This document shows positions 77 through 19,618 of a stretch of 60,303 nucleotides of DNA, piece after piece. Source of the DNA: Candidatus Zambryskiibacteriota bacterium (GTDB lineage Bacteria > Patescibacteriota > Minisyncoccia > Phycocordibacterales > DATDWN01); contig PPGI01000010.1 in the NCBI GenBank assembly GCA_003173855.1, positions 1 through 60,303 on the forward strand. The letters are read 5' to 3'. The position numbers and the translations under genes are program-made. Within the stretch, counting starts at the first letter, position 1; every line of letters begins with the position of its first letter. The notes under the pieces were generated by a model, which saw only the letters and a program-made list of their open reading frames with translations, had not been told where the DNA came from and ran no database searches.

Positions 77-1864
77 CTACACTCCTAAGATTACAGGGAT
101 GACTATAGGTTTCTTCGCAGTTTTTTGGAACAAGAATCTAGCCACTTCGTCAGCAAGTGTTGCTTTAACTAGATCAAAATCGATTGGATTCATGCCAGCT
201 GTGGTGTTTTCAACTGTTTTTTTGATAATCATTCGGGCGTGATTTAGAAGTTCCTGTGATTCACGAAGATAAACAAAACCTCGAGAAATAATATCTGGAG
301 ATTTTTTCAATTTTCCTGTTTTAGTATTGATTGAAACAACGACAAGAAAGATTCCGTCTTGAGCAAGCATTTTTCTGTCTCGCATAACCATTTCCTGAAC
401 ATTTCCAACAGAGAAACCATCAACAAGTACCAGATTTGAAGGCACTTTTTCTTTCAGCATTCGGATTTTCTGGCCTTGGTCATAAATTTCTACGATTGAA
501 CCATTGTCTGGAATAACAATATTTTCTTTTGGATGTCCGAGCGATTGGGAAAGTTCAGCATGCTGGCAAAGCATGTAGTGGTTTCCGTGAACTGGCATAA
601 AGAATTTGTAAGGAATTTGTTGGTGAATCCATTTAAGTTCGTCTCGGTTTCCGTGTCCTGAAGCATGAATGTCAGAATCAAGATATGTAACAATTTTAGC
701 ACCAGATCGGTAAAGGTTGTCTTTCAGATTAATAACTGACCTGTAGTTTGTTGGAATAACAGAAGAGGAGAGGAGGACAGTGTCAGTTGGTTTTAAGTGA
801 ACATATTTGTGAGTTTTATTTGCAATACGCATTAGAGCTGCAAATTCCTCACCTTGGGCACCAGTTACAAGCATAACAATCCTATCTGGCGGATAATTTT
901 CAATATCTTCAAGAGGAATGATGTTTGTTACTTCAGCAAGTTTTAAATGTTTAATGATTTCAATGTTTGATTTCATTGAACGGCCTTCAATCACCATTTT
1001 CTTTCCGTATTTTTCTGCAGCCTTTATGATAGCGATGATTCGTTCAACTTGAGAAGCAAACGTAGCAATGATCAATCGGCTTTTGGTTTCTTTGATAAAA
1101 CGATCAATGTTTTCGATAACCACATCTTCTGAAAGTGAAAACCCGGGTTTTTCAATCGAAGTTGAGTCCATCGTAAGCAAAAGCACATTCATGTCTTTAA
1201 ACATTTTGTACTGCTCGACTTCTTCTTCCGTTGGAACACCTTTGACGTTATCAACACGAACATCTTCAATGAAAACAATATTTCCATAAGGAGTCTCAAT
1301 GATTAATCCCATTGAATCGGGAATAGTGTGTGAAATAGGAAATGTTTTTACTCGAAGTTGTCCGACTGTGATAGCTTCGTTGCCATCAATAATTGCGATA
1401 TCGAGTGGTTTTAAGTGAGGAAATTCTTCCTGGCGTTTTTTAATCATCACTGCACCGAATTGTCTTGTATAAATTTTTGGATAGCCAATTCGATCAATGA
1501 TAAATGGAATGCCGCCAATGTGATCTAGGTGACCATGAGTTATAAAAAGAGCCCGAATTCGATCTTTATTATCTTCAAGATATTTAGTGTTTGGCAAAAT
1601 GTAATCAATTCCAGGAGTATCTTCGTCTTTAAATTGAAAACCAGCATCAATAATGATGATATCGTCTTTATATTCAATAGCTGTCATATTTCGGCCGACT
1701 TCCTCAACTCCTCCAAGCGGAATAACTCGAATACTGTCTCCGATAGGCGGGATAACATCCTCAGTTTTTTTAGTCATTTTTAACGGAATGTCTCGACGAC
1801 CAAATTGTCTCCTAGGTCGGGGACCGCGCGCATGATGTCTTGATTCTTGTGTTTGATTTTCCAT
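77..1864 (-). CDS. rnj: Ribonuclease J
   Basis: GGVEEVGRNMT start, THGHLDHIG metallo-beta-lactamase motif, HASGH, MPVHG, SRGFVY C-terminal motif. Confidence 0.95.
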   Translation of the reverse strand: MENQTQESRHHARGPRPRRQFGRRDIPLKMTKKTEDVIPPIGDSIRVIPLGGVEEVGRNMTAIEYKDDIIIIDAGFQFKDEDTPGIDYILPNTKYLEDNKDRIRALFITHGHLDHIGGIPFIIDRIGYPKIYTRQFGAVMIKKRQEEFPHLKPLDIAIIDGNEAITVGQLRVKTFPISHTIPDSMGLIIETPYGNIVFIEDVRVDNVKGVPTEEEVEQYKMFKDMNVLLLTMDSTSIEKPGFSLSEDVVIENIDRFIKETKSRLIIATFASQVERIIAIIKAAEKYGKKMVIEGRSMKSNIEIIKHLKLAEVTNIIPLEDIENYPPDRIVMLVTGAQGEEFAALMRIANKTHKYVHLKPTDTVLLSSSVIPTNYRSVINLKDNLYRSGAKIVTYLDSDIHASGHGNRDELKWIHQQIPYKFFMPVHGNHYMLCQHAELSQSLGHPKENIVIPDNGSIVEIYDQGQKIRMLKEKVPSNLVLVDGFSVGNVQEMVMRDRKMLAQDGIFLVVVSINTKTGKLKKSPDIISRGFVYLRESQELLNHARMIIKKTVENTTAGMNPIDFDLVKATLADEVARFLFQKTAKKPIVIPVILGV

Positions 1865-1869
1865 ATGAA

Positions 1870-3615
1870 TTAATTATTATTTTGTTTTGCAAAAAATTTC
1901 CAAACGTTATTTGTCTCAATGTACCATTTATATACATTTCCAAACCGCTCATTTGCAGTTGTAAGAGTTCCTAATTCCACACCGTGGACTTTATTTGGAA
2001 CAATGTAGATAAAATATGGAGCGTAGGTGAATACTGCCGGTACGTCGTTTGTTATTTCATTGTTTATACCAGATAAGTTATCCTTTTGTAAATCCGGATC
2101 ATTTGTTTTTCTAAAATTTTCAAGCATTTTGTCAGCACGAAGATTCGTATAAAGTGCAATATTTAATCCTGGACTGACACGTTCTGAAGAATGCCAAAAT
2201 GGATAAAGATCAAGATCTCGTCCGACCACTTCGCCAAAAAGAAGCGAATCGTATTTTCGATTTCGAATAATATTTTGATTTAAATCTCCGAGTTCAAAAA
2301 TTTTTACTTCAACTAAAGCTCCGATTTTTTCCCATTGTTTCTGGAGCAAATAGGCTGCAGCTTTTAATTCAGGTGCGTCACCTGTGGAAATTGAAAATGA
2401 GAGGGTTGTTGTATTTCCTTTTTTATCTTTTTTTTCAAAAATTCCCGAATCATTTTGCTTCCAGCCTGCGCGAGTAAGTATTGCTTCGGCAAGAGTAACT
2501 CTGTCTTCTGAAGATGTCGCTTTATTGCCCAAATTTTGAGGTGGAATAGGAGAATCGATCGGTTCACCATAACCTTGGAGCACAGAATTAATGATTTCCT
2601 GCTTGTCTGTAGCTTTATTTAGAGCGAGTCTTACTTCTTTATTAACCAAAACAGGCGCAACATTTTGATTGAAGAAAACGCCGAAAATTCTCGGCAATGG
2701 TGAAAGCAAAACAATTTCGTTGTCGATTTTTAAATTTGGAAGTTCTTTAGGAGTTACTCCGTGAATACTTTCAACATTTCCGTCTTTAAAGTTTGAAATT
2801 AGATTTTCCATATCAGGATATGATTTGATAACCAAATTTGTGATGTAGGGTTCTCCCAAAGCATATTTATTGAAAGCTTTTAAATGGTATTCAGATGGTA
2901 AACCGCTTCCGTTGTAAGTTATGTAATCTACTTTGTATGGTCCAGAACCAATTGGTTTTGTGTTGTATTGGCTAAATGGAAATTCTTCGTTTGTTGCTTT
3001 GCTCCAAATATGTTTTGGCAATATTCCTGTTGTTAGATTCTCAATAAATGGTGAATAAGCTTGACTTAATGTAAATCTTACAGTTTTATCATCAACTTTT
3101 GTGACTTTTACACCTTGCCAGTTTGCTTCGCGTGGACTCTTAAGGCTTGGGTCTTGTGCTCGCTCCACTGTAAAAACCACATCATCTGCTGTCACTTTTA
3201 TACCATCATGGAATGTGGCATTTTTTAATGTAGCTGTGTATGTTAGGCCATCTTCAGATATGTTGTATGTTTCTGCAAGATCAGGGATCAATTGTCCCGA
3301 TGGGTCAACACGCAAAAGGCCTGAATAAATTAATGTTGAGAGATCTTTATCTGTATCAGATGATGCAAGAATTGGGTTAATGAAACGGGGTGATCCTATA
3401 ACACCTTCAGTCAAAGTTCCTCCATAATCCGGAACTGCTACAAGAAATAATTTATTAACTTGGTAAAGAAGGACAAGCGCACTTATTCCAAATACAAAAA
3501 CCAGAAAATAAAATACAGCTTTTTCTGTTACTGAAAATGACTTGATTACTCGAAGGATTTTGTCCCCGTATGGAATACGCCATCTCTTTTCCTTAAATTC
3601 AAAATTATTATTCAC
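1870..3615 (-). CDS. Peptide ABC transporter substrate-binding protein (family 5, OppA/DppA-like), membrane anchored
   Basis: YGGTLTEG, LIYSGLLR, PDLAE, FHDG..VTADDVVFT, PIGSGPY motifs; N-terminal TM helix. Confidence 0.9.
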   Translation of the reverse strand: MNNNFEFKEKRWRIPYGDKILRVIKSFSVTEKAVFYFLVFVFGISALVLLYQVNKLFLVAVPDYGGTLTEGVIGSPRFINPILASSDTDKDLSTLIYSGLLRVDPSGQLIPDLAETYNISEDGLTYTATLKNATFHDGIKVTADDVVFTVERAQDPSLKSPREANWQGVKVTKVDDKTVRFTLSQAYSPFIENLTTGILPKHIWSKATNEEFPFSQYNTKPIGSGPYKVDYITYNGSGLPSEYHLKAFNKYALGEPYITNLVIKSYPDMENLISNFKDGNVESIHGVTPKELPNLKIDNEIVLLSPLPRIFGVFFNQNVAPVLVNKEVRLALNKATDKQEIINSVLQGYGEPIDSPIPPQNLGNKATSSEDRVTLAEAILTRAGWKQNDSGIFEKKDKKGNTTTLSFSISTGDAPELKAAAYLLQKQWEKIGALVEVKIFELGDLNQNIIRNRKYDSLLFGEVVGRDLDLYPFWHSSERVSPGLNIALYTNLRADKMLENFRKTNDPDLQKDNLSGINNEITNDVPAVFTYAPYFIYIVPNKVHGVELGTLTTANERFGNVYKWYIETNNVWKFFAKQNNN

Positions 3616-3945: not shown

Positions 3946-5956
<2,011 letters not shown>

Positions 5957-6001
5957 AAAACTAGTGATATAATTTTTGCGTTACAAACTAATCTAAAACA
6001 A

Positions 6002-6580
6002 ATGCCTGAACAATCATTTTTTGCTCGAAATAAAGTTTTAATTATAGTTTTACTTGTGATTGTAGTTCTAGTTTGGTGGGGAGTTGCTACATACAACTCA
6101 TTTATAAGAGGAGGAGAGCAGATTACTGCACAATGGGCACAAGTTGAAAATCAATACCAAAGGCGTTTTGATTTGATTCCAAATGTTGTAAACACTGTAA
6201 AAGGTGTTGCAAAGCAGGAACAAGCTGTGTTTGGTGAAATTGCTGAAGCTAGAACACATTACGCAGGTGCTGTTACTCCAGACCAAAAAGCAGCTGCGGC
6301 AAGCCAAGTCGAGTCAACACTCGGAAGATTGTTAGTTATTGCTGAAAATTATCCAACCTTGCAATCAAGCCAAGCATATAGGGATTTAATTGTGGAACTC
6401 GAGGGAACAGAAAACAGAATTTCAGTTGAGAGAATGAAATACAATGATCTAGTACGTTCGTACGATACGAAAGTAAAAACTTTCCCAACTTCAGTTTTAG
6501 CAAAACTGTTTGGAGTTAGTGCGCATGAGTACTTCAACGTACCTGAGTCCAATCAACAAGCTCCTCAAGTCCAGTTTTAA
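6002..6580 (+). CDS. lemA: LemA family protein
   Basis: N-terminal TM, WAQVENQYQRRFDLIPN, AENYP.L, ENRISVER..YN, FP...LA..FG. Confidence 0.93.
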   Translation: MPEQSFFARNKVLIIVLLVIVVLVWWGVATYNSFIRGGEQITAQWAQVENQYQRRFDLIPNVVNTVKGVAKQEQAVFGEIAEARTHYAGAVTPDQKAAAASQVESTLGRLLVIAENYPTLQSSQAYRDLIVELEGTENRISVERMKYNDLVRSYDTKVKTFPTSVLAKLFGVSAHEYFNVPESNQQAPQVQF

Positions 6581-9509: not shown

Positions 9510-10439
9510 ATGCTGAAAACTTACAAAATTTTTTTTCTGGTTGCTGTAATCGGCTTTGCTATTTTCTATAGAACAAAATTAGAAAATATTTGGGCTGAAG
9601 CTTACCAGCATTATCTTCCATGTAAAACGCCAATTGCCTATAGCATTGGTACTTTTGATACTCGATTTGGCATATCCAAAGTCGAATTTTTAAGTGCATT
9701 AGCACAAGCTGAATCAATTTGGGAAACTCCAATAAACAAGCAATTATTTAAATATGATCCAAATGGCAATTTAAAAGTAAATTTAATTTATGATAATCGG
9801 CAAAGGGCAACTGATCAATTAAAATCTATGGGACTTGTTGTTAGTGATAACAGAGCATCATATGACGAACTTAAAGCAAAATATGATTCACTTATTCTAG
9901 AGTACAACCAAAAACGTGCAACTTTTCAAGCTGACCTAAGTAATTTTCAACTAGCAAAAACATCTTATGAAAAAGAAGTTCAACAGATAAATGCTCGAGG
10001 TGGAGCAACAAGAGAGGAGTACAACAGACTAAATACTGAAAAAAATGTTTTAAATTCTCGAGTCACTTCGCTCAATTTAGAGCAAGATCAGTTGAATCAA
10101 ATGGTTGACCAAATCAATACTTTGGCTAAAACATTGAATGATTTAGCTTCGACGCTTAATATTAATGTCCAAAAATTTAACACAGTTGGCTCAAGTTTGT
10201 CAGGTGAGTTTGATGAAGGAATTTATAAATCAAGTCCAGATGGCCAGGAGATTGATATTTACCAATTTGAAAACAGAGATAAATTAGTGCGCGTTCTTGC
10301 TCACGAACTTGGACACGCGCTTGGTCTTGAACATGTCGATGATCCAAAAGCGATCATGTACAAATTAAATGTAGGGGAGAATGAAAAATTAACTTCTGCT
10401 GATTTAGGAGAATTAAAAAATCTTTGCGGTATTAAATAA
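9510..10439 (+). CDS. Matrixin-like (M10) zinc metalloprotease with central coiled coil
   Basis: HELGHALGLEH zinc motif plus AIMY Met-turn; N-terminal TM. Confidence 0.88.
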   Translation: MLKTYKIFFLVAVIGFAIFYRTKLENIWAEAYQHYLPCKTPIAYSIGTFDTRFGISKVEFLSALAQAESIWETPINKQLFKYDPNGNLKVNLIYDNRQRATDQLKSMGLVVSDNRASYDELKAKYDSLILEYNQKRATFQADLSNFQLAKTSYEKEVQQINARGGATREEYNRLNTEKNVLNSRVTSLNLEQDQLNQMVDQINTLAKTLNDLASTLNINVQKFNTVGSSLSGEFDEGIYKSSPDGQEIDIYQFENRDKLVRVLAHELGHALGLEHVDDPKAIMYKLNVGENEKLTSADLGELKNLCGIK

Positions 10440-10442
10440 TTT

Positions 10443-11531
10443 ATGAAAAAATTTATTAAAATCTGTTTCTATCTTTTGATCATTCTTTTTGCAGTTACAA
10501 TTTTATCTAAATCATCAATCAAACATAATGTGAATGTAAAGCCATCTCGGGCACTCCATGTTCCAGCTGTTGGAGCGATACGTTGGGATGCGTGGTATTC
10601 AGGAAGTAATTTAAGTAAAACTGAGGAAATCGCTCTGTCGCCAGAGAAATGGCATTATCGTCTGCCTTTTTATGCAGTGATTCCAAAAAAGGGAACTGTT
10701 CAGATTAGATTGGATACACAGGCACAAATGGACTTTGAAATTCGAGCAGCCAAAGCTGGAGGATTAGATTATTGGGCGTTTGGTTATTATGGTGATAATG
10801 ATAAAAATGCTAATGCATTAAAAAAATATTTAAATAGTGCTCATAAAGCTGACATGAGATATGCTCTACTTTTATTTCCACAAGCAATTGGGAAAAGTGG
10901 ATGGCTTGGTCAAGTCGTTGCTCACTTTTCTGATCCACTGTATATGAAGGTTCTAAATGGTCGACCACTTTTATATGTATTTGATGCCGGAGGATCGATT
11001 TCAAAAAATGATTTGGAAAGTGTGAGAAGTGCTGCAAAATCCGCAGGTCTGCCAAACCCATACATTGCTTGGATGACATGGGATGTGCAGGATGGGAAGT
11101 GTGAAAGTCATGACTGCGATGCTATTGCCAATTATGGATTATCACCTACAGGAAATCCCCTGGAAGTTGTGCCGTATCAAAATTTAGCAAATGTGGATCT
11201 TAAATTTTCTCAAGATGCCGAGAATAGAGGCTTAAAAGTTATCCCACCAGTTGGCACTGGTTGGGATCCACGACCTGGGTATGATTATCCGCCGCCATGG
11301 GGAGCAGGTTACAAGACGGCAGTTACAAATGGGACACCTCAGGAGATTGCAGAAAATTTAAATACTGCTATACATTGGGCAAACAGCAATGGATCTGCTG
11401 AATCAAAAGTAATTCTCATATATGCATGGAATGAATTTGAGGAAGGAGGATGGCTAACACCGATGCTACAAGGTGGAGCAGAGAGACTCACTGCGATAAG
11501 CTCTGTTATGAGCACGCTTCCTAAAAAATAA
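10443..11531 (+). CDS. Secreted GH99/GH71-like glycoside hydrolase
   Basis: VGAIRWDAW, LDYWAF, GRPLLYVF, GWDPRP, IYAWNEFEEGGW motifs; N-terminal signal/TM. Confidence 0.7.
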   Translation: MKKFIKICFYLLIILFAVTILSKSSIKHNVNVKPSRALHVPAVGAIRWDAWYSGSNLSKTEEIALSPEKWHYRLPFYAVIPKKGTVQIRLDTQAQMDFEIRAAKAGGLDYWAFGYYGDNDKNANALKKYLNSAHKADMRYALLLFPQAIGKSGWLGQVVAHFSDPLYMKVLNGRPLLYVFDAGGSISKNDLESVRSAAKSAGLPNPYIAWMTWDVQDGKCESHDCDAIANYGLSPTGNPLEVVPYQNLANVDLKFSQDAENRGLKVIPPVGTGWDPRPGYDYPPPWGAGYKTAVTNGTPQEIAENLNTAIHWANSNGSAESKVILIYAWNEFEEGGWLTPMLQGGAERLTAISSVMSTLPKK

Positions 11532-11541
11532 AATTAATATT

Positions 11542-11615
11542 GCGGAATTAGTTAAATGGTAGAACGGCCGCTTCCCAAGCGGCAAATACGAGTTCGATTC
11601 TCGTATTCCGCACCA
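11542..11615 (+). tRNA. tRNA-Gly (CCC)
   Basis: GCGGAAT/ATTCCGC acceptor, GCCGC-TT-CCC-AA-GCGGC anticodon arm, ACGAG-TTCGATT-CTCGT T arm, encoded CCA. Confidence 0.95.
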
Positions 11616-11679: not shown

Positions 11680-13038
11680 ATGCCGTCTTACTCAAAAATT
11701 GCCTTATTTTCAGCCATTTTATTGGTATTTTTTACTTCGTCAGCTTATGCTCAAGTTGTTTCTTCAACTCCTCCAACAGTTTCAATCGGAGTAGGAAATG
11801 GCAATACTCCAGCAAATACTGGTCCTCAACATGGCTCAATTTTTCATGGAAACATTCCTGTTTATGCAACTGTAAACGATCCAGATAACGATTTAGAAAA
11901 TTATCACTTTCGAGTTGTGAAAGATGGTGGCAGTTTAGGTTTTACTTGCACAGTTCCAGACGGATTATTTTTGCCTGAAAATCAAGGTTATGCATCATCA
12001 ACTCTTGGAAAAGATGCTTGCGGATATGTTTACAATCAGTCAATTTATACTGGAACCAATTTTACAAACTCAATTATTACTACTTTAAACACAATTGATC
12101 TTGGCGCTTATTCTGGTGATGGAAATTATTGGCTAATTCTTGGTGCTCGAGATACTACAGGAAACCGTACAAATCCTGACTATTTGACTGATTCACAAGT
12201 AGAAATCACTGTTGATAATACAGCTCCCATGACAACAAGTTCAATAGGAAACAGGAGAGATTCTGACTTATTTACAATTTTCGGAACGTCAACTGATACA
12301 AATGGTGTGGCAAACACAACTGTTTCATATGCAAATTTTGATGGAACAAATTGCGGAACTTTTTCACAAGCAGGAATTTTAAATGGGGGAAATACGGCAG
12401 TCTTTCCTTGGACATTCGAATTTAATCCAAATACCGACGGAAATTATTGTCTTTCTGTTTCTAGTACTGATCTCGTAGGAAACAAAGAAACTGATAATAC
12501 AATTGAAACTAATATTCCGTTTCTTTCTTCAACAACTCCAACGCCAACACCTACGCCATCACCAAGTCCAAGTCCAGCACCGTCTCCGTCCCCAACTCCA
12601 GCACCAAATTCAGCTCCTGTAGGAGGAAATGGCCCAATTGTTGGCACATTTGGGAAAATTAATGGTCAAGGATCAAATGACGGACAAGTTCTTGGTGAAT
12701 CAACAACAACACTCCCATCGGGCTGTGTACCTGTACTAACTTCTTACCTAATCAGCGGCGGCAAGAATAATAAAGAAGATGTAAAAACACTCCAGAATTT
12801 TTTGAATAAATATTTTGGAACAAATATTCCAGTAAACGGAATTTTTGGTCCGCAAACTCTTGCCGCAGTTTATAAATTCCAGGCAAAAGAAAGTGAAGAA
12901 GTCTTAATGCCTTGGGTCAGAGCTGGATTGTGGAAGAGCGCAAACCCAACTGGTTACGTTTACAAAACTACATCACGACGAATAAATATGCTGAGCTGCA
13001 TTGGTGAAATAAATATCCCAATGCCGCAGCTTCCTTAA
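11680..13038 (+). CDS. Secreted beta-rich (Ig-like) protein with Pro-Thr/Ser linker and C-terminal peptidoglycan-binding-like domain
   Basis: Signal peptide ending AYA, ITVDNTAP Ig-type motif, TPTPTPTPSPSPSP, DVKTLQNFLN..VNGIFGPQTLAAVYKFQ. Confidence 0.75.
   Translation: MPSYSKIALFSAILLVFFTSSAYAQVVSSTPPTVSIGVGNGNTPANTGPQHGSIFHGNIPVYATVNDPDNDLENYHFRVVKDGGSLGFTCTVPDGLFLPENQGYASSTLGKDACGYVYNQSIYTGTNFTNSIITTLNTIDLGAYSGDGNYWLILGARDTTGNRTNPDYLTDSQVEITVDNTAPMTTSSIGNRRDSDLFTIFGTSTDTNGVANTTVSYANFDGTNCGTFSQAGILNGGNTAVFPWTFEFNPNTDGNYCLSVSSTDLVGNKETDNTIETNIPFLSSTTPTPTPTPSPSPSPAPSPSPTPAPNSAPVGGNGPIVGTFGKINGQGSNDGQVLGESTTTLPSGCVPVLTSYLISGGKNNKEDVKTLQNFLNKYFGTNIPVNGIFGPQTLAAVYKFQAKESEEVLMPWVRAGLWKSANPTGYVYKTTSRRINMLSCIGEINIPMPQLP
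12537..12606 (+). repeat. Pro-Thr/Pro-Ser coding repeat
   Basis: cca/ccg + aca/act/agt codon repeats. Confidence 0.85.
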
Positions 13039-13042
13039 TGAG

Positions 13043-13063
13043 AATCGCCTCCGGGCGATTTTT
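13043..13063 (+). terminator. Intrinsic terminator-like hairpin
   Basis: AATCGCC-TCCG-GGCGATT plus T run right after the stop at 13038. Confidence 0.65.
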
Positions 13064-13079
13064 CATTTATAATAAAATT

Positions 13080-14033
13080 ATGGATTTTTTAAAGAAGTGG
13101 TTTGTACCTGGTCAAAAAAATGGCTATAAACCGCATTTATTTTCTGAAACCGGAATAGGTGTTCTTTTTTCTTTGATTATTTTTGTTTTTTTGATAGCTA
13201 GTTTAGGTAATTTTATTATTAGCAGAACTGGTCTAACGGCTTTAGTTTTACCGAATGTTTTAGTTGATGAAGCAAATAGTGATCGACAAGCTCTGCAATA
13301 TAGAGAACTAACAATAAATCCAATACTAGTTCGAGCAGCGCAATTGAAAGCCAATGATATGGCAACTAAAGGTTATTTTGCCCATCAAAGTCCTGATGGA
13401 CATTCGCCATGGTACTGGTTTAGCGAAGCAGGGTATGATTTTAGTTATGCTGGAGAAAACTTGGCAGTAAATTTTACTGATTCAAGTGATGTAAATGCTG
13501 CATGGATGAATTCGCCATCTCACAGAGCAAATATATTAAATAGTAATTTTACTGAAATTGGCATTGCCACTGCAGAAGGAATTTATAACGGAAAAGCCAC
13601 AACATTTGTGGTCGAAATGTTTGGCAGGCCAGCGTTTGAAAATTTGGCTACAAATATAGCTTTAAATGCAGAAACTAAGACAAAAATCGCTACTACAACC
13701 AAAATTGTTCGAACATCGAGTGTTCTTGGTGCTAGTGAGGAAAACGATCTTTATATTGCTGTAAAAAAGGAGAGTGCTGCCACAACTTTTGCCGAAAATA
13801 CAAATTATTCTAATTGGATTGGACGATTGTTCTCTTCTCCAAAAAGAATAATGAGCTTTATTTATATTGTTCTTGCTGTGCTAATTACTATCGGATTAAT
13901 CCTTATGATTGTGATTGAAATAAAAAAACAACATCCAATTTATATTATGTTTGGTCTAGGACTTCTCTTTTTAATGCTTGTTCTTACGTATCTTTATCAA
14001 AATTTATTGTTTGGACCACTTCTCATCGTTTAA
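13080..14033 (+). CDS. CAP/SCP-domain membrane protein
   Basis: AAQLKANDMA..GYFAH.SPDG, YAGENLA, AWMNSPSHRANIL, EIGIA; TM helices at both ends; start moved to MDFLKKW. Confidence 0.9.
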   Translation: MDFLKKWFVPGQKNGYKPHLFSETGIGVLFSLIIFVFLIASLGNFIISRTGLTALVLPNVLVDEANSDRQALQYRELTINPILVRAAQLKANDMATKGYFAHQSPDGHSPWYWFSEAGYDFSYAGENLAVNFTDSSDVNAAWMNSPSHRANILNSNFTEIGIATAEGIYNGKATTFVVEMFGRPAFENLATNIALNAETKTKIATTTKIVRTSSVLGASEENDLYIAVKKESAATTFAENTNYSNWIGRLFSSPKRIMSFIYIVLAVLITIGLILMIVIEIKKQHPIYIMFGLGLLFLMLVLTYLYQNLLFGPLLIV

Positions 14034-14121: not shown

Positions 14122-15180
14122 ATGGAAATAAAAAAGATTGTGAAGCCGAAATTCATTATTTTAAGCCTTTTATTTACACTTATTATCCCGTTTTTCCCAT
14201 TTCCTAATATATCAGGGCTGTGGGCTACAGAGGCTAAAACAAAGCAACATGGCAGGTGGGCAACTGACTCTACACCATCTCCAGATCCAAGTCCTAGCCC
14301 AGTGCCAACACCAAGTCCAAGTCCAGCACCAAGCCCAACTCCAACTCCGACGCCTACACCGACACCAGTTACAAGCCCTACGCCAACTCCAGTAGCAGGA
14401 ACAATACAATGGGGAGCTTATGCTGGAGAAACTGTTAGTGAAATACAAAATTTTGAAACTCTTATGGGCAAACAAACAGAAATTGTAAGTGTCTTTTATG
14501 CATTCACTGATGATTTTCCAACAACTTATCAATCAGCAATTGGCGCAAAAGGGAAAACACTTTTAATTTTTTGGGAGCCAACAACCAATCTTGATCAAAT
14601 AAATAATGGAAACCAAGATGCTTATTTACGTGCTTTTGCCGCTGGAGCCAAAGCTTATGGTTATCCAATAATTCTTGCGCCATTCCATGAAGTTAACGGC
14701 AATTGGGATGTTTGGGATGGAACAGTAAGCAATAACTCTCCAGCCAAGTTTCTAACTGCTTGGAAGCACGTTCATGACCTTTTCATTGGTGTAAATAACG
14801 TTAAATTTGCTTTATCTTATAATGCTGGTTCGGTTCCAGATGTTGTCGGAAATCAAATGAGCGATTACTATCCTGGAGATAATTACGTTGATTATCTTGG
14901 ACTTGATGGCTTCAATTTTGGTTCTCCTTGGCAATCATTTGATGCTATTTTTGCCGTTCCAATAATTGAATTAGAAAGTTACCACAAACCAATTTATATT
15001 TTCTCAATGGCTTCAACTGCTGGAGCGGGGAAGGCTGCATGGATTAGTGATTTTGGATCTGAAGTTTATAAATTCCCAATTTCAGGCTGGGTTTGGTTTA
15101 ATCAAAATGGAACTGATGGAAATTGGCTCGTAAACTCTGATTCAGCTTCATTAACTGCATTCAAGCAAATTTTGCCTTAG
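14122..15180 (+). CDS. GH26-like (beta-mannanase/endoglucanase H family) protein with Pro-Thr linker
   Basis: LLIFWEP, FHEVNGNW, YYPGDNYVDYLGLDGFN, KPIYIF, GWVWFN. Confidence 0.8.
   Translation: MEIKKIVKPKFIILSLLFTLIIPFFPFPNISGLWATEAKTKQHGRWATDSTPSPDPSPSPVPTPSPSPAPSPTPTPTPTPTPVTSPTPTPVAGTIQWGAYAGETVSEIQNFETLMGKQTEIVSVFYAFTDDFPTTYQSAIGAKGKTLLIFWEPTTNLDQINNGNQDAYLRAFAAGAKAYGYPIILAPFHEVNGNWDVWDGTVSNNSPAKFLTAWKHVHDLFIGVNNVKFALSYNAGSVPDVVGNQMSDYYPGDNYVDYLGLDGFNFGSPWQSFDAIFAVPIIELESYHKPIYIFSMASTAGAGKAAWISDFGSEVYKFPISGWVWFNQNGTDGNWLVNSDSASLTAFKQILP
14272..14392 (+). repeat. Pro-Thr/Pro-Ser coding repeat
   Basis: TPSPDPSPSPVPTPSPSPAPSPTPTPTPTPTP. Confidence 0.85.
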
Positions 15181-15330
15181 TCAAGTAGACAAATCAAAAA
15201 AAATAACTAGTATCGGTTAAGAATTTTCTTTTACATAAGCCTCGTTGCAAATTAGTTGCAGCAGGCTTGCTTTTTTTAAGAAAATGTGTTTATATTAGCC
15301 GGTCAAATTGGGGCTATAAACATATACAAT

Positions 15331-16341
15331 ATGCGAATTTCAATAGTCATTCCATGTCATAACGAAGAGAAGTCGATTGCTAAATGTATCGATTCTTGTC
15401 TTGCGCAGACCAGAAAAGCTGATCAGATTTTAGTTATTAACGATGGAAGCACAGATAATTCTCGAAAAATTTTGGAAACTTACAAAAAAGATATTGAAGT
15501 TTTAACAATTCCAGTAGCAACAGGTAATAAAAGCCGTGCTCAAGAAAAAGGTCTCTCTTATGTAACAGGTGATATTTTTATTGCAACTGACGGAGATACT
15601 TTGCTTGATAAAAATTTTGTAAAACGAATCGAAGAAGATTTTAAAGATCCAAAAGTCATTGCCGTTGGAGGATATGTTAAAAGTCTTCGCTACAATTGGC
15701 TGACTGCATGCCGCGCTCTCGATTATACAGTTGGACAAAATATCGATAAGCTTGCCCAAGACTATGTAAATTACATGCTTGTTATTCCTGGCGCAGCAGG
15801 AGCATTTCGAACTAACATTTTTAAAAAGCTTGGTTTTGACCACGACACCCTAACAGAAGATTTGGATTTTACTTATAAACTCCATAAACTAGGCCATAAA
15901 ATTAAATATGATAGGGAAGCCATTTGCTATACTCAGGATCCTGCAGATTTTTCATCTTATGTAAATCAAATGCGAAGATGGTTTGGTGGCGGTTGGCAAT
16001 GTTTTATGAAGCATGCCAGTGTTCCATCTCGACCGGGCATGGCACTTGAACTCTCGCTAATTTACGGAGAAGGCTTGGTTTTCTCTCTTTTAATTTTCCT
16101 TCTTCCGTTTATAAATATCTTTTTTGCTCTGACATTGCTATTTTCAAATCTTGTTATTGTTCTTGCACTTGCAATCTTTGCCGGCGCTAAAGAAAAGCGA
16201 TGGGATTTTCTCTTAATTCTTCCACAATACTTATTTTTAAAATATGTAAACGCTTGGATTTATCTTGAACAATTCACAAAAGAAGTTGTTTTAAAAAGAA
16301 AAAATATGGCCTGGTTTCATCCAGACAGAGTAAGAATATAA
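15331..16341 (+). CDS. Processive GT2 polysaccharide synthase (IcaA/PgaC/NodC-like)
   Basis: IVIPCHNEE, INDGSTD, TDGDT (DxD), PGAAGAFR, TEDLD, QMRRW; C-terminal TM helices; start moved to MRISIV. Confidence 0.9.
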   Translation: MRISIVIPCHNEEKSIAKCIDSCLAQTRKADQILVINDGSTDNSRKILETYKKDIEVLTIPVATGNKSRAQEKGLSYVTGDIFIATDGDTLLDKNFVKRIEEDFKDPKVIAVGGYVKSLRYNWLTACRALDYTVGQNIDKLAQDYVNYMLVIPGAAGAFRTNIFKKLGFDHDTLTEDLDFTYKLHKLGHKIKYDREAICYTQDPADFSSYVNQMRRWFGGGWQCFMKHASVPSRPGMALELSLIYGEGLVFSLLIFLLPFINIFFALTLLFSNLVIVLALAIFAGAKEKRWDFLLILPQYLFLKYVNAWIYLEQFTKEVVLKRKNMAWFHPDRVRI

Positions 16342-16448: not shown

Positions 16449-16814
16449 ATGAAATTTATCTCAGTCACAATTGTTATAGCAGTCTTTACGATGGTTCTTA
16501 TGGGATCGTATTTAATCCTAATTCAGAGTTTTCGAAGTGATACTTCAAATTACAGAATCGTAAAAGAAATCATTTCAAAACAATTTGATATTGTCAGAGC
16601 CGACAGCTTAAAAGAAAAATTAACTTGCTTAACAACTTCACAAAATTATTCGATTGTCGATTTTATGAAAGCAAATAATATTGATAGTTCTTTTGAAGCC
16701 AGAGCTGTCTTAGCAAAAAAAATTAATATAAATGATTACGATGGTACTCCGGATGAAAATTCTAAGCTAATTAAATATTTAATTAGTCAAAAATGCCAAG
16801 AAACAGTTACATAA
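16449..16814 (+). CDS. Membrane-anchored protein with DUF3597-like cell-wall-binding module
   Basis: N-terminal TM; SIVDFMKANNIDSSFEARAVLAKKININDYDGTPDENSKL resembles the SIVD..DSSF..R..LA module of Firmicute endolysins. Confidence 0.6.
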   Translation: MKFISVTIVIAVFTMVLMGSYLILIQSFRSDTSNYRIVKEIISKQFDIVRADSLKEKLTCLTTSQNYSIVDFMKANNIDSSFEARAVLAKKININDYDGTPDENSKLIKYLISQKCQETVT

Positions 16815-16888
16815 TGTTTTTTGCTTGCATTATATAAAGGGTTATGGCAAGGTTTAAAAAATTTAATACAGAATTAATAGAAAAGAAT

Positions 16889-19312
16889 ATGAAAACGAAA
16901 ATTACAAAAAAAATGATGAAAAGAAAGGATTTGATAGATGTCCACTTTTTAATAAGCTCGGCATTGTTTAGTGTTTTAGTTGTATTTTCCACTGTTGTCT
17001 TACAGCCTCTTTCACTTAAAGCCGAAGATGTAAATTTAATTCCTAACGCAGATTTTCTAAATCAAACGATCCCTGGTATTCCAGATAATTGGTTTCAAGG
17101 CGGTTACGGAGTAAGCACTTCAACATTTGCATTTCCGGTTATAGGTTCAACAGGAGCTCCCACTGATAACGCAGTAAACGTTACAATCACAAATTATCAA
17201 AGTGGTGACGCGAAGTGGTACTTTTCTCCAGTTCCCGTAACAGCAGGACGAACTTACGTTTTTTCAGATTCATATAAATCAGATACGCAATCACAAATAA
17301 TTGCAGAGTATTTTGATACAAACTTAGTTCCACTATCACCAACAGATCCGGGAACAAGAGGGTGGTTTGGAGTAGTCCCAGCATCAACCGAATGGGCAAC
17401 AACGACAAACAGCTTTACACCTCCAGCCGGTGCAGCTTACATGACTGTTTTCCATTCTCTACAAGGCAATGGCTCGCTTACAACAGATGACTCTAAGCTT
17501 ATATTGCTTCCGCCTCCACCGCAGTTTGCTAATGGGGTAGTGACACTTACATTCGATGATGGTTGGGAATCACAATATATAAATGCTTTTCCAGCACTAA
17601 AAAACGCGGGATACAAAGGATCATTCTATTTAATTTCAAGCACACTAATTCCTGGTGCAGAAGTTGATCCAAATATTCTTTGCCAAAACGTTCAATCTTA
17701 TTGTGATCAAGGCGTAATTTCTGAAACCCCAAGCTCTTGGATGGCAGCCGGACAATATCCAGATCCAAACACTGACACTTACACATTTGCTGACACATTT
17801 GATGCAAGTGCAACAAGCACAATTACAGTTAGTTACTTTGATCAAAATAATAATCCAATAGATGGCGAGCAAAATATTGTCCTTCAAACTCTTGAGTCGG
17901 GAACAGGACAAAATGTTTCAGTGAAATTTACAATTCCTCCAGCAGTTTTTGCCCTAACCAGTACATCATCTCCAGTAGGCCCATCATTTGCTATTGTTCA
18001 TTTCGTTCCAGATGGAGAGACTATTCATGTAACAAGTCCAAAGGTAACAAAAAAACAAAGCGGAGCTGACACCTACATGGTTCCGTCGCAAATTCTTGAT
18101 ATGCAGGCAAATGGCATGGAAATCGGGGCTCACACAGTAGATCACTGCAACCTTGCACTTCTTGATCAAGATAACAGCTCATCTTTAACAGGAGCATGTG
18201 CTTCAAATCTTTTAGTTCCAGTAACACCTGAATACGAAATCAATACTTCTCGATCAACAATACAGTCGTTTGGAGCAACACCTGTTGATACATTTGTTTA
18301 TCCATACGGAGGATTTAATGCTCATGTTGAGTCATTAATAAACCAAGCAGGATTTATTTCTTCGCGAACAGTAAATGTCGGATTCAATACAAAAAATTCT
18401 GATTTGTACGCTCTTAACACACAGTTAGTTGATAAGCCGCTTACTGATAATCCAACTGGTTTAAATACAGTTGAGTCTTGGATTGATACAGCCCTAAACA
18501 ATAAATCATGGCTCATTCTTACATTCCACAATGTTCAAACTCCAGAACAAATGGCTGCTAATCAATCAGCTCGACCAGGAAGTGTTGATGAATCAACGAC
18601 CTCGGTATTCTTTCAAGCGGTTGTTGATTATTTAAAGGCACATAATGTTTGTGTAGCAACAATGCATGATGCAACCAATGCTCTTAAATCTGATCAAGAT
18701 CCATGTAATTCCCAAACAAATACACCGCCTCCAACACCGACACCTACACCTACACCTACTCCAACTCCTACGCCCACTCCAACTCCAACACCAACTCCTG
18801 ATCCAACTCCAACACCAACACCAGCACCATCAGGAGGTGGCGGAGGAGGTGGAGGTGGTGGTCCAACAATATATGAAATTATTGCAAGATCAGCTTCGTC
18901 GACATCTTCATCATCAACTGGCCAAGTTTTGGGAGAAAGCACAAGTTCTCCATTAACAGGCATGGATCTTCTAAATGCACTTAAAGTAAAACTTGCTTCT
19001 CTATATAAGCAGCTAGTTACACTTCAATTCAAAGCTTCTGGTTGTTCATATGTCTGGACTACAGATCTATCATTTGGCTCGTATTCATCTGATGTAAATA
19101 GTCTTCAAACAACATTAAACTCAAGTTCTCTGACTGAAGTTGGGAACAAAGGATTTGAAACATCATTCTTTGGACTTTCAACAAAAGCGGCAGTTATTAA
19201 ATTCCAAAATATTTTCCTTGAGGAAACTATGAAACCATTGGGATTAACTTCTGGAAATGGAATTGTTGGATCTACAACACGCGCAGTCTTGAATACCATT
19301 TGTTCCAAATAG
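16889..19312 (+). CDS. Secreted CE4/NodB polysaccharide deacetylase with CBM-like domains, Pro-Thr linker and peptidoglycan-binding-like C-terminus
   Basis: LTFDDG, EIGAHTVDH, FVYPYG, LILTFH CE4 motifs; NLIPNADF..W CBM4/9-like N-terminus; FFGLSTKAAVIKFQ..GNGIVGSTTR. Confidence 0.85.
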   Translation: MKTKITKKMMKRKDLIDVHFLISSALFSVLVVFSTVVLQPLSLKAEDVNLIPNADFLNQTIPGIPDNWFQGGYGVSTSTFAFPVIGSTGAPTDNAVNVTITNYQSGDAKWYFSPVPVTAGRTYVFSDSYKSDTQSQIIAEYFDTNLVPLSPTDPGTRGWFGVVPASTEWATTTNSFTPPAGAAYMTVFHSLQGNGSLTTDDSKLILLPPPPQFANGVVTLTFDDGWESQYINAFPALKNAGYKGSFYLISSTLIPGAEVDPNILCQNVQSYCDQGVISETPSSWMAAGQYPDPNTDTYTFADTFDASATSTITVSYFDQNNNPIDGEQNIVLQTLESGTGQNVSVKFTIPPAVFALTSTSSPVGPSFAIVHFVPDGETIHVTSPKVTKKQSGADTYMVPSQILDMQANGMEIGAHTVDHCNLALLDQDNSSSLTGACASNLLVPVTPEYEINTSRSTIQSFGATPVDTFVYPYGGFNAHVESLINQAGFISSRTVNVGFNTKNSDLYALNTQLVDKPLTDNPTGLNTVESWIDTALNNKSWLILTFHNVQTPEQMAANQSARPGSVDESTTSVFFQAVVDYLKAHNVCVATMHDATNALKSDQDPCNSQTNTPPPTPTPTPTPTPTPTPTPTPTPTPDPTPTPTPAPSGGGGGGGGGGPTIYEIIARSASSTSSSSTGQVLGESTSSPLTGMDLLNALKVKLASLYKQLVTLQFKASGCSYVWTTDLSFGSYSSDVNSLQTTLNSSSLTEVGNKGFETSFFGLSTKAAVIKFQNIFLEETMKPLGLTSGNGIVGSTTRAVLNTICSK
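18721..18857 (+). repeat. Pro-Thr repeat followed by poly-Gly
   Basis: (PT)n then SGGGGGGGGGG. Confidence 0.9.
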
Positions 19313-19337
19313 ATTCTAAGTTTGTGGAAATTTTAAC

Positions 19338-19362
19338 AAAAGTCAGCTTAAGGCTGGCTTTT
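19338..19362 (+). terminator. Bidirectional terminator-like hairpin
   Basis: AAAAGTCAGC-TTAAG-GCTGGCTTTT. Confidence 0.6.
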
Positions 19363-19381
19363 GTGTTATCTTTAGTTTGTC

Positions 19382-19468
19382 GGAGAGGTGGCTGAGTGGT
19401 TTAAAGCACTGGTTTCGAAAACCAGCATTCCTTAATTGGAATCGCGAGTTCGAATCTCGCCCTCTCCG
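19382..19468 (+). tRNA. tRNA-Ser (CGA)
   Basis: GGAGAGG/CCTCTCC acceptor, CTGGT-TT-CGA-AA-ACCAG anticodon arm, long variable arm, GCGAG-TTCGAAT-CTCGC T arm. Confidence 0.95.
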
Positions 19469-19618
19469 CAGTGAACGTAGTGAAAACTGCGAAGAGGCGG
19501 ACTAGCTTTCGAAGAAAGCGTAAGTCGATTCGAAACCCGATTGAGATATTTTGGAGCTTGCGAGAAAATATCCAATTGGGGTACTGAAACTGTAAGTTTC
19601 GAATCTCGCCCTCTCCGC
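19449..19618 (+). repeat. tRNA 3'-end direct duplication (21 bp) bracketing a ~130-bp palindromic insert
   Basis: ttcgaatctcgccctctccgc at 19449-19469 and 19598-19618. Confidence 0.9.

Follow-up and report, generated by a model that had tools for sequence, protein, structure and literature searches.

What does a protein do that keeps the fold and the acid/base glutamate of GH26 enzymes and carries serine at the position of the catalytic nucleophile? The question is raised by a gene at positions 14122..15180, on the forward strand, of the window, by which we mean the whole 60,303-nucleotide stretch of Candidatus Zambryskiibacteriota DNA (contig PPGI01000010.1) that was analyzed. A first-pass annotation had described a GH26-like protein with an intact HEVNG motif and a strand-7 motif reading KPIYIFSMAS, and both are present in this ORF. 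From homologous sequences, a structure model, and gene neighborhoods, we conclude that the protein probably acts on a surface polymer of the cell's own, either as a functional enzyme whose mechanism has been altered or as a dedicated binder.

Architecture and active site of the GH26-like protein

The intact ORF encodes 352 amino acids and belongs to GH26 by sequence similarity, (β/α)8 fold, and its H-E acid/base motif. It matches Pfam family PF02156 with 39.3 bits against a cut-off of 20.2, a match that spans aa 179-265 only, and phmmer aligns aa 96-350 with CtLic26A (Lic26A below; E=5e-40; PDB 2bvd/2vi0/2cip) at about 35-40% identity across the whole domain. This lichenase of Clostridium thermocellum, the GH26 module of CelH, available as PDB entries 2bv9, 2bvd, 2cip, 2cit, and 2vi0, is the nearest characterized relative. 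An AF2 model of the (β/α)8 catalytic-type domain (aa 92-352; 14395..15177) reached a pLDDT of 96.5 and a pTM of 0.93; its best Foldseek matches were again Lic26A structures (2cip/2vi0; TM 0.92, rmsd 1.9 Å), and the further matches were all GH26. The family assignment made at first pass holds in superposition as well as in sequence.

Ahead of this domain, the N-terminus (aa 1-35; 14122..14226), a Lys-rich start followed by FIILSLLFTLIIPFFPFP, reads as a signal peptide or membrane anchor, and a Pro/Thr/Ser-rich linker is read at aa 49-91 (14266..14394). An N-terminal hydrophobic 15-mer is present in 153 of the 174 full-length homologues that share the serine (S-type). Homology, modeled fold, and secretion signal lead us to propose that the window protein is an extracytoplasmic, membrane-tethered Lic26A-type (β/α)8 domain. 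Lic26A, in contrast, is part of a cellulosomal multidomain enzyme in a context of plant cell wall degradation, whereas the gene described here lies beside a synthase and a deacetylase. An NCBIfam search placed the protein in no family and returned matches to the low-complexity linker only; among these, TonB, SslE, and BimA were discarded as spurious. Within the window, tblastn found no second, canonical GH26 paralogue that could supply activity.

In the phmmer alignment, H189-E190 of the HEVNG motif (aa 189-193) falls on H108-E109 of Lic26A (motif HEANG), and Ser295, within KPIYIFSMAS (aa 289-298), falls under Glu222 of the Lic26A motif KPIIIAEFAS. Glu222 of Lic26A is reported as its nucleophile and Glu109 as its acid/base (Taylor et al. 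2005). Glu190 (codon GAA, 14689..14691) is the retained acid/base residue, and Ser295 (codon TCA, 15004..15006) occupies the nucleophile position, as had been claimed; the AF2 model places it in strand β7 (model residues 200-207). Chain 2cip, a deposited variant of Lic26A, has Gln at position 222. Two residues of the -1 subsite are exchanged as well: Ala186 (14677..14679) aligns to the position of Arg105, and Phe264 (14911..14913) to that of Tyr185, the Tyr of a D-G-Y motif. Arg-197, Tyr-263, and His-200 of BoMan26B are likewise -1-subsite residues of a GH26 enzyme (PMC6556568). By motif position they correspond to window residues 186, 264, and 189, with Arg-197 and Ala186 both four residues ahead of the acid/base Glu and Tyr-263 at the D-x-Y position that Phe264 matches.

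Lic26A and the window protein have in common H-E-x-N-G, D166, W198, Y255, D257, D262, N265, K304, W307, and W335, and they differ at Glu222, Tyr185, Arg105, and Val153 of Lic26A, which are Ser, Phe, Ala, and Ala here. The window protein lacks the β7 nucleophile Glu and the -1-subsite Arg and Tyr of GH26, and because the nucleophile is absent, the retaining double displacement used on β-mannan, β-1,3-xylan, or mixed-linkage glucan is impossible as defined.

Conservation of the serine form

Of the 120 closest homologues, 118 have serine at the nucleophile position, 2 have Ala, and none has Glu. Across 273 aligned domains, position 295 is Ser in 220 and Ala or Gly in 5, and the canonical Glu appears only below about 42% identity. 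When the acid/base residue, position 264, and position 295 are read as a triplet, 215 domains are E/F/S, 34 are E/Y/E, and few are mixed. All 123 E/F/S sequences included in an NJ tree fall inside one clade of 128 (the S-clade), which the midpoint root separates from 156 canonical sequences, and several independent origins of the Ser form are rejected by this single clade. Among species-representative genomes, the S-clade comes almost only from MAGs of Patescibacteria (CPR), and its members diverge down to about 40% identity. Ser reported by tblastn in two low-identity Actinomycetota paralogues (L027 and L071) was not reproduced by MAFFT and was set aside as alignment noise. In the literature searched on GH26, CtLic26A, nucleophile-less clan GH-A proteins, PNAG, and Patescibacteria, we found no description of the S-clade.

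Every S-type (123/123) and every E-type (128/128) sequence has Glu190, and all 123 of the S-type have N192; together with W198, D166, D257, D262, N265, K304, W307, and W335, these two positions are as invariant in one clade as in the other, and in the S-clade about 17 active-site residues are invariant besides the acid/base Glu and Asn192. The -1-subsite Arg, found in 119 of 128 E/Y/E and 21 of 21 E/F/E sequences, occurs in 0 of 123 S-clade members, which have A, I, V, or S in its place. None of these 123 has Tyr at position 264, and the β5 Val has become Gly or Ala. The alignments indicate a deep clade maintained by selection, with replacement limited to the nucleophile network.

Another Glu or Asp serving at the nucleophile site would be incompatible with the serine claim, and across the 123 S-type sequences no new conserved Asp or Glu was gained in clade-specific columns. 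A relocated enzymatic nucleophile is rejected, since E152, D166, D257, and D262 are also found in canonical enzymes and E152 varies. At position 189, directly before the acid/base, S-type sequences (n = 123) have H in 39, S in 28, E in 18, D in 17, A in 8, and N in 6; Asp or Glu stands there, with kinship ignored, in 35 of 123, compared with 1 of 149 nucleophile-bearing sequences, and the window protein has His. Loss of the acid/base Glu was seen only in the second copy of a tandem protein, P0121 (E190 to Q and F264 to W), and in P0218 (E190 to Q plus Gly at position 295). Drift in these two has the look of relaxed catalytic constraint, unlike the invariant E190 elsewhere, and across the clade the catalytic residues that remain show no such relaxation.

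Gene neighborhood and related systems

We propose that the GH26-like protein forms a synthase-dependent surface-polysaccharide module with the products of the next three genes on the same strand. The first encodes a processive membrane GT2 synthase (15331..16341; 336 aa from its ATG) with C-terminal TM helices and matches to Pfam GT2 families, and its NDGSTD, DGD, TED, and QMRRW motifs are invariant in 11 orthologues. Its best NCBIfam match is the PNAG synthase PgaC_IcaA (TIGR03937), at 122 bits and below the equivalog cut-off of 422, followed by XrtG-associated GT, MftF, and NodC, and the ortholog profile matches hyaluronan (HAS), cellulose (BcsA), and chitin (Chs) synthases in the PDB. Next comes a small membrane protein with one TM and DUF3597 (16449..16814; PF12200, E=6e-7); of 9 other S-type loci that were inspected, 8 also have a small protein of 1-2 TM after the GT2. 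The last is a CE4 (NodB-type) polysaccharide deacetylase of 822 aa (16844..19312), which carries the motifs TFDDG and HTVDH and also has a PT/poly-Gly linker and a C-terminal domain. It matches PF01522 in two stretches (E=2.5e-17) and, weakly, HfsH and PgaB in NCBIfam, under the PgaB/IcaB equivalog level, and a PDB sequence search with it gave no match. CE4 enzymes de-N-acetylate PNAG- or chitin-like polymers and also remove O-acetyl groups. A terminator-like hairpin found by a terminator scan (19336..19364) closes the cluster, and a tRNA-Ser (19382-19469) follows it. Genes for PG-binding and CAP-domain surface proteins are also among the neighbors.

Between the GH26-like and GT2 genes lies a further terminator-like hairpin with a U-run (15236..15277, same strand; dG -19.4 kcal/mol, z = -3.06 vs shuffles), missed by the consensus terminator scan and found by direct RNA folding. 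It parts the two genes, so that co-transcription is not to be assumed. A functional tie between their products is nevertheless supported by conserved synteny. When linkage was defined as a GT2 ortholog of at least 300 bits and/or a CE4 of at least 100 bits within 5.7 kb, it was found at 13 of 15 S-type and 0 of 63 E-type loci (Fisher p=4.8e-13, kinship ignored), with varying order and orientation of the linked genes in S-type loci. The adjacent GT2 mentioned at first pass is real, and its tie to the GH26-like gene is stronger than had been noted. The four-gene module predicts that CPR/Patescibacteria, which are ultra-small, largely episymbiotic bacteria, make a partly deacetylated surface polysaccharide of their own, and this predicted polymer may serve as an attachment or biofilm matrix.

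The pgaABCD/icaADBC systems for PNAG follow the same logic as this module, with a processive GT2, a CE4 deacetylase, and a small membrane protein that may be the counterpart of the one here. They differ in that the GT2 and CE4 here fall well short of the PgaC and PgaB equivalog cut-offs, the small membrane protein here has no sequence similarity to PgaD/IcaD, and a PgaA-like porin is absent, as expected if these bacteria have no outer membrane. The C-terminal barrel of PgaB, which is without consensus catalytic motifs, was thought to be inactive and then shown to be a dPNAG hydrolase, GH153 (PMC5933820). GH153 and the window barrel are alike as TIM-barrel glycanase-like modules without canonical catalytic motifs; they show no relationship, the window barrel being derived from GH26. 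Other processive synthases have membrane-anchored or periplasmic accessory glycanases beside them as well, namely BcsZ (GH8), plant KORRIGAN (GH9), PslG (GH39), and PelA (GH166). KORRIGAN is N-terminally membrane-anchored, as the window protein appears to be, and all four keep their complete canonical catalytic machinery, unlike the S-clade.

Candidate functions of the S-type protein

The first-pass annotation had offered a pseudo-enzyme or an enzyme of altered mechanism. Decay into a pseudo-enzyme is unlikely, given that the clade has kept the acid/base Glu, Asn192, and the further active-site residues counted above and that Ser and Phe are themselves fixed; a chain guide that only binds, under purifying selection, is possible. 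The evidence leans slightly toward an altered mechanism: what has been replaced is precisely the nucleophile plus its two partners in the -1 subsite, and the neighboring genes point to a polymer that is N-acetylated. We tentatively favor a functional glycanase that would act on a GlcNAc-type polymer of the adjacent synthase and use the acetamido group of the substrate as its nucleophile. Across the S-clade, Ser has taken the place of Glu222 in the nucleophile apparatus (Lic26A numbering), Phe that of Tyr185, and small aliphatic residues that of Arg105, whereas the acid/base Glu and the remaining -1/+1 subsites are kept. The target would be a β-linked N-acetylhexosamine polymer, PNAG-like or chitin-like, which would be cleaved or trimmed. 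An attack on C1 by the 2-acetamido oxygen of the -1 sugar, coming from the side where the carboxylate is missing, would give an oxazoline/oxazolinium intermediate by neighboring-group participation, while Glu190 would act first as general acid and then as base. The acetamido group may be housed in a Ser295/Phe264/Ala186 pocket (with Ala230), which we place by sequence positions alone.

Absence of an enzymatic nucleophile together with a retained acid/base is what substrate assistance calls for, and the S-clade has both. Substrate-assisted enzymes of GH18, GH20, GH84, GH85, and GH123 are also TIM barrels with no nucleophile and a single acid/base ending β4, and they resemble the S-clade further in the N-acetylhexosamine substrate that we infer for it and in the D/E-E pair of 28% of its members, a D-E pair being typical of GH20/GH84-type substrate-assisted enzymes. 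They belong to another clan, however, whereas the S-clade is of GH-A descent with a variable polarizing residue, His-Glu in the window protein, from which the DxxDxDxE and H-x-G-G-D-E motifs are absent. We know of no clan GH-A family that works by substrate assistance, which makes the prior for it modest. Also counting against our preference, the GT2 lies far under the PgaC/IcaA cut-off, the CE4 may act on O-acetyl groups, and position 189, expected to polarize the acetamido group, is not fixed. If active, the S-type proteins would be a lineage of GH26 and clan GH-A without the defining β7 nucleophile, substrate assistance would be their probable mechanism, and a separate CAZy subfamily would be justified.

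The chief alternative, possible and in our judgment somewhat unlikely, is that the protein is a noncatalytic binding module, whose Lic26A-type groove would guide the nascent chain from the GT2 to the CE4 or the cell surface. Loss of the nucleophile and two -1-subsite partners with no replacement carboxylate conserved is consistent with binding alone, as are the tight synteny with the synthase, the membrane tether and long linker, and the extra binding domains (PG_binding_1 and Big_2) of some homologues; Klotho KL2, a GH-like domain without nucleophile, only binds. A mere binder would not readily explain, however, why E190 and N192 are 100% invariant across a clade so diverged, why Ser295 and Phe264 are fixed where any small residue might do, or why both members that lost the Glu show drift at other site residues. 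Accessory glycanases of characterized synthase-dependent systems, moreover, are active, PgaB GH153 being one example and BcsZ, PelA, and PslG others.

Catalysis by some other altered mechanism, as a glycosidase or transglycosylase whose substrate could be a non-acetamido β-glucan made by the GT2, seems doubtful to us. It might proceed by inversion through a water held by Ser295, with Ser295 itself as nucleophile, or by a GH99-like 1,2-anhydro-sugar route, and the retained acid/base is compatible with these options. The fold and subsites are of the mixed-linkage β-glucanase type, and the strict preference for Ser over Ala/Gly suggests that the hydroxyl matters; the rare Ala variants inside the clade speak against this, as does the lack of a conserved general base near the vacated site. 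The changes from Tyr to Phe and from Arg to aliphatic residues lower the polarity of the site, which argues against an activated water or Ser, and a plain glucan would make the adjoining CE4 harder to account for.

Peptidoglycan, of the cell itself or of a host, is an N-acetylated β-1,4 glycan, and CE4 includes peptidoglycan deacetylases, so an enzyme of the lysozyme or lytic-transglycosylase type working with one Glu, its gene linkage reflecting general wall remodeling, can be imagined. PG_binding_1 occurs in about 10 of the 120 closest homologues, and the nearby PG-binding and CAP-domain genes would suit such a role. We nevertheless regard it as quite improbable, since PG_binding_1 is missing from the window protein and most members, in these genomes PG-binding domains often serve to anchor proteins to the wall, and the linkage that resists rearrangement is to a PgaC/IcaA-like synthase, which has no role in peptidoglycan synthesis.

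The first-pass comparison with engineered glycosynthases stands as far as the type of substitution is concerned: Cellvibrio Man26A (GH26; PDB 1odz) was altered in the same manner, at the same position, and in the same family. Beyond this it is an analogy, because the engineered enzymes need synthetic α-glycosyl fluoride donors and the context here indicates no natural activated α-donor; the S-clade change, in contrast, is natural and ancient and is accompanied by the Tyr-to-Phe and Arg-to-aliphatic changes that the engineered enzymes do not carry. We hold it very unlikely that the protein is a natural glycosynthase-like, nonhydrolytic transglycosylase or ligase, in which Glu190 would serve as general base and couple to an acceptor either an activated α-linked sugar or a GlcNAc chain terminus in its oxazoline form, so that the GT2 product would be extended, branched, or anchored on the CPR cell surface and not cut. 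Were it true, the engineered Glu-to-Ser glycosynthases would have their first counterpart in nature, and clan GH-A would gain a new type of reaction. The natural co-substitutions (Glu to Ser, Tyr to Phe, Arg to aliphatic) offer a template for studying what makes a nucleophile-less GH-A site stable.

That Ser295 stems from an error in sequencing or assembly, or marks a recent pseudogene with an inactivating mutation private to it, has nothing in its favor except the unusual residue and is refuted, since TCA is two base changes from GAA or GAG, contigs of two independent public metagenome runs span the codon with zero differences (the locus matches soil DNA metagenome runs only), the ORF is intact, and hundreds of independently assembled homologues have the same Ser.

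Database entries name the S-type homologues "beta-mannanase," "mannan endo-1,4-beta-mannosidase," or "endoglucanase," and the S-type protein is probably not the plant-fiber "mannanase" that such entries suggest. With these labels and the GH26 Pfam matches, CAZyme surveys therefore probably over-credit CPR bacteria with hemicellulose degradation.

A GH26 fold with serine at the nucleophile position

The 352-residue protein encoded at 14122..15180 (+) begins with a Lys-rich N-terminus and then a hydrophobic stretch, its signal peptide or anchor; a Pro/Thr/Ser linker of 43 residues (aa 49-91) leads from there into a domain of 261 residues. Pfam recognizes GH26 (PF02156) at 39.3 bits against a cut-off of 20.2, over aa 179-265 only, and a PDB sequence search returned a full-length match (aa 96-350, E=5e-40) to CtLic26A, the lichenase of Clostridium thermocellum. 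An AlphaFold2 model built from 70 homologues (pLDDT 96.5, pTM 0.93) superposed on Lic26A structures with a TM of 0.92 and an rmsd of 1.9 Å in Foldseek, and the remaining matches were solely other GH26 enzymes. When aligned to CtLic26A, H189-E190 of HEVNG lie opposite H108-E109 of HEANG, and KPIYIFSMAS falls under KPIIIAEFAS, placing Ser295, in strand beta7 of the model, opposite Glu222. We take E109 to be the Lic26A acid/base and E222 its nucleophile, roles reportedly described by Taylor et al. in 2005; one deposited CtLic26A variant chain, 2cip, has Gln at the Glu222 position. The first-pass annotation, drawn from the sequence alone, had described a GH26-like protein with HEVNG intact and Ser in place of the nucleophile, and it was right in all details. 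The finding is solid and holds for an entire lineage as well as for a conserved set of genes; what we infer is the mechanism.

A sequencing or assembly artefact is excluded: the Ser295 codon (TCA, 15004-15006) is at least two substitutions from every Glu codon, contigs of two public metagenome runs match it without difference, and homologues share the residue. Of the 120 database proteins most similar to this one (47-100% identity), 118 have Ser at the nucleophile position, two have Ala, and not one has Glu; E190, N192, K289, and P290 are invariant among them.

The serine clade and its active site

Searching 1.84 billion cluster representatives exhaustively gave 299 proteins at E<=1e-30. Above ~180 bits (~42% identity or more) no match carried the nucleophile Glu, nearly all having Ser and four Ala, and canonical KPxAE(T) sequences occurred solely below ~180 bits. 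All domains retrieved in both searches (273) were aligned and scored as triplets at the acid/base (190), the D-G-[Y/F] residue (264), and the nucleophile position (295), giving 215 E/F/S (S-type), 34 E/Y/E, and few mixed cases. Neighbour-joining on 284 domains, with Lic26A and translations of GTDB loci among them, placed 123/123 E/F/S sequences in a single clade of 128. The remaining five of that clade are derived variants (three E/Y/A, one Q/W/S, one Q/Y/G), and the midpoint root lay exactly between this clade and 156 canonical sequences. The single clade and its split from the canonical sequences at the root point to one old origin of the Ser form. Among GTDB species representatives, all S-type loci but one come from Patescibacteria/CPR MAGs (labelled Saccharibacteria, Vogelbacteria, Adlerbacteria, Taylorbacteria, and Paceibacterota); the remaining one sits on a 4.5-kb contig, perhaps wrongly binned, of a Gammaproteobacteria-labelled MAG. 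Canonical loci belong mostly to Actinomycetota, with others in Margulisiibacteriota, Spirochaetota, Chloroflexota, and a few CPR MAGs. Nine loci from Solirubrobacterales and relatives (within L041-L080 of our locus set) hold tandem arrays of three to five canonical Lic26A-like GH26 paralogues, and some copies have exchanged Tyr for Phe with the nucleophile Glu and the Arg kept. This E/F/E type (21 sequences) may be an intermediate state towards the Ser form.

Compared column by column, 123 S-type and 128 E/Y/E sequences share invariant G163, D166, E190, N192, W198, N226, P251, G252, Y255, D257, D262, N265, P290, K304, W307, F326, and W335. Replacements in the S-type are few and functionally clustered: relative to Lic26A, Glu222 becomes Ser295, Tyr185 becomes Phe264, Arg105 becomes Ala, Ile, Val, or Ser (here Ala186), and beta5 Val153 becomes Gly or Ala (here Ala230). 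Position 186 is Arg in 119/128 sequences of the E/Y/E type and 21/21 of the E/F/E type, but never in the S-type (0/123). A structural and phylogenetic GH26 study (PMC6556568) lists Arg-197, His-200, Tyr-263, and both catalytic Glu as conserved -1-subsite residues in BoMan26B numbering, which by motif position are residues 186, 189, 264, 190, and 295. On this correspondence, the nucleophile and two of its -1-subsite partners were exchanged together for small or hydrophobic residues. The loss also survived a search for a substitute, as no column of the comparison gained an acidic residue in the clade and thus no other Glu or Asp takes the nucleophile site. Position 189, just before the acid/base, is variable in the S-type (H 39, S 28, E 18, D 17, A 8, N 6; n=123), forming a D/E-E pair in 35/123 versus 1/149 nucleophile-bearing sequences; the protein studied here has His-Glu.

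Descent and fold make this a GH26 domain of the Lic26A branch. Yet three residues of the GH26 catalytic definition are absent, namely the nucleophile Glu and both Arg and Tyr of subsite -1, and we therefore speak of a GH26-derived, nucleophile-less clade, not of a GH26 enzyme. Source databases call its members beta-mannanase, endoglucanase, or glycosyl hydrolase, and the literature searched contains no description of a Ser-type GH26 clade. A hydrophobic start in 153/174 full-length S-type proteins marks the clade as extracytoplasmic.

Linkage to a processive synthase and proposed function

Downstream of the gene, a terminator-like hairpin (15236-15277; dG -19.4 kcal/mol, z -3.06) is followed by a GT2 (15331-16341) that has C-terminal transmembrane helices and the motifs DGD, TED, and QMRRW, a 121-residue DUF3597 membrane protein (16449-16814, +; PF12200 E=6e-7), and an 822-residue CE4 deacetylase (16844-19312, +) that carries TFDDG and HTVDH; the whole region is framed by tRNA genes and a terminator. 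The best curated match of the GT2 is the PNAG synthase PgaC/IcaA, near full length at 122 bits against a 422-bit equivalog cut-off, ahead of an XrtG-associated GT, MftF, and NodC. In the PDB, a profile of 11 orthologues matches the synthases of hyaluronan, cellulose, and chitin, identifying the GT2 as a processive membrane synthase. The CE4 matches HfsH and PgaB weakly and had no match in a PDB sequence search.

The same neighbours accompany homologues of 55%, 64%, and 50% identity. Across GTDB species representatives, an ortholog of this GT2 (>=300 bits, 49-60% identity) and/or of this CE4 (>=100 bits) lies within 5.7 kb in 13/15 S-type loci, in varying orders and orientations, versus neither in any canonical-Glu locus (0/63; Fisher p=4.8e-13, kinship of loci ignored). 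A small protein with one or two TM segments follows the GT2 in 8/9 other S-type loci examined (noted downstream in L005, L007, L009, L012, L013, and L014) and might act as a synthase partner of the PgaD/IcaD kind. A P-x-T-G-L-S-x-x-x-H segment at the N-terminus is common to several of them: the two-TM form, present in most loci, starts with it, and the one-TM form, here and in L004, carries DUF3597. P0047, an E/Y/A variant, is no longer in the cluster. On a near-complete 827-kb CPR contig (L084; entry 1600-3144 (-) and 4683-6053 (+)), the S-type cluster adjoins a second, chitin-synthase-like GT2 and lies 5 kb from a GGDEF-EAL gene, a hint that c-di-GMP might control it, as it does PNAG and cellulose systems.

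The clade pattern argues against decay: the acid/base Glu, along with most of the sugar-binding site, has stayed invariant throughout a deep clade, Ser and Phe are fixed, and the two members without Glu have changed other site residues too: the second domain of P0121 (E->Q with F->W) and P0218 (E->Q with Gly at 295). P0121 is an 859-residue tandem protein with two S-type domains (260-521 and 603-859), the second of which looks like a binding-only derivative. Where a pseudo-enzyme or an altered mechanism had been offered at first, we think decay unlikely, given invariant Glu190, and put an altered enzyme slightly ahead. Tentatively, the clade would cleave a polymer of beta-linked N-acetylhexosamine through neighbouring-group participation, Glu190 serving as acid/base. 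In GH18/20/84/85-type enzymes, the 2-acetamido group curls under C1 as an intramolecular nucleophile; the site left by Glu, Tyr, and Arg would lie on the alpha face, under C1 of the -1 sugar, where that group must curl to attack. The PgaC/IcaA-like synthase, the CE4, and the D/E-E pairs emerging in the clade accord with this reading, against which the polarizing residue is not fixed and we know of no clan GH-A precedent for substrate-assisted catalysis.

A selected non-catalytic module that binds or guides the chain would account for both nucleophile loss and synteny, but it is a poorer fit to Glu190, Ser, and Phe being absolutely conserved, and we rank it as the main rival, somewhat less likely than the enzyme. 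Other altered chemistry, possibly on a non-acetamido glucan (inversion through a Ser-held water, a Ser nucleophile, or a GH99-like epoxide), is improbable given a less polar vacated site and no conserved base. Still less probable is a peptidoglycan-directed lysozyme or lytic-transglycosylase-like enzyme, which fits PG_binding_1 in ~10/120 homologues but leaves the specific linkage to a processive synthase unexplained.

For the favoured N-acetylhexosamine glycanase, the PNAG system offers a close functional analogue as well as a caution: the PgaB C-terminal barrel, without recognizable catalytic motifs, was thought inactive until shown to hydrolyse dPNAG (GH153; PMC5933820). The system logic resembles pga/ica, although no part of the cluster reaches equivalog level and its barrel is unrelated to GH153. 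The initial comparison with engineered glycosynthases holds for the Glu->Ser change itself, which a GH26 example shares (PDB 1odz), but is a formal analogy only.

Other features of the cluster region

The NodB domain of the CE4 is split, with ~190 residues rather than the usual ~50 between TFDDG (~aa 236-240) and HTVDH (~aa 431-435), and Pfam matches it in two stretches. After it come a PT-repeat, a run of 10 Gly, and a C-terminal domain similar to the end of the 11680-13038 protein that holds PG_binding_1. A second processive-type GT2 (39359-40606, -; 415 aa, Chitin_synth_2 match) is 30% identical to the cluster GT2 and has no GH26-like neighbour. Just upstream of the cluster, beyond tRNA-Gly (11542-11615), are an M10/matrixin-like metalloprotease with a coiled coil (9510-10439, +) and, directly after it, a membrane-anchored WbsX-like (PF14307) TIM-barrel protein (10443-11531, +) with no NCBIfam match. 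The CAP/SCP-domain protein immediately upstream of the GH26-like gene (13038-14033, +), with N- and C-terminal transmembrane segments, lies outside the conserved module, since L015 and L061 are the only loci where a homologue lies close to a GH26-like gene. Long Pro/Thr/Ser linkers in three neighbouring secreted proteins (11680-13038, 14122-15180, 16844-19312) give spurious antisense ORFs (12444-12647, 14212-14532, 18694-18963) and, in metagenome runs, draw short cross-matching contigs of unrelated genes, with loose ends at 14335-14367.
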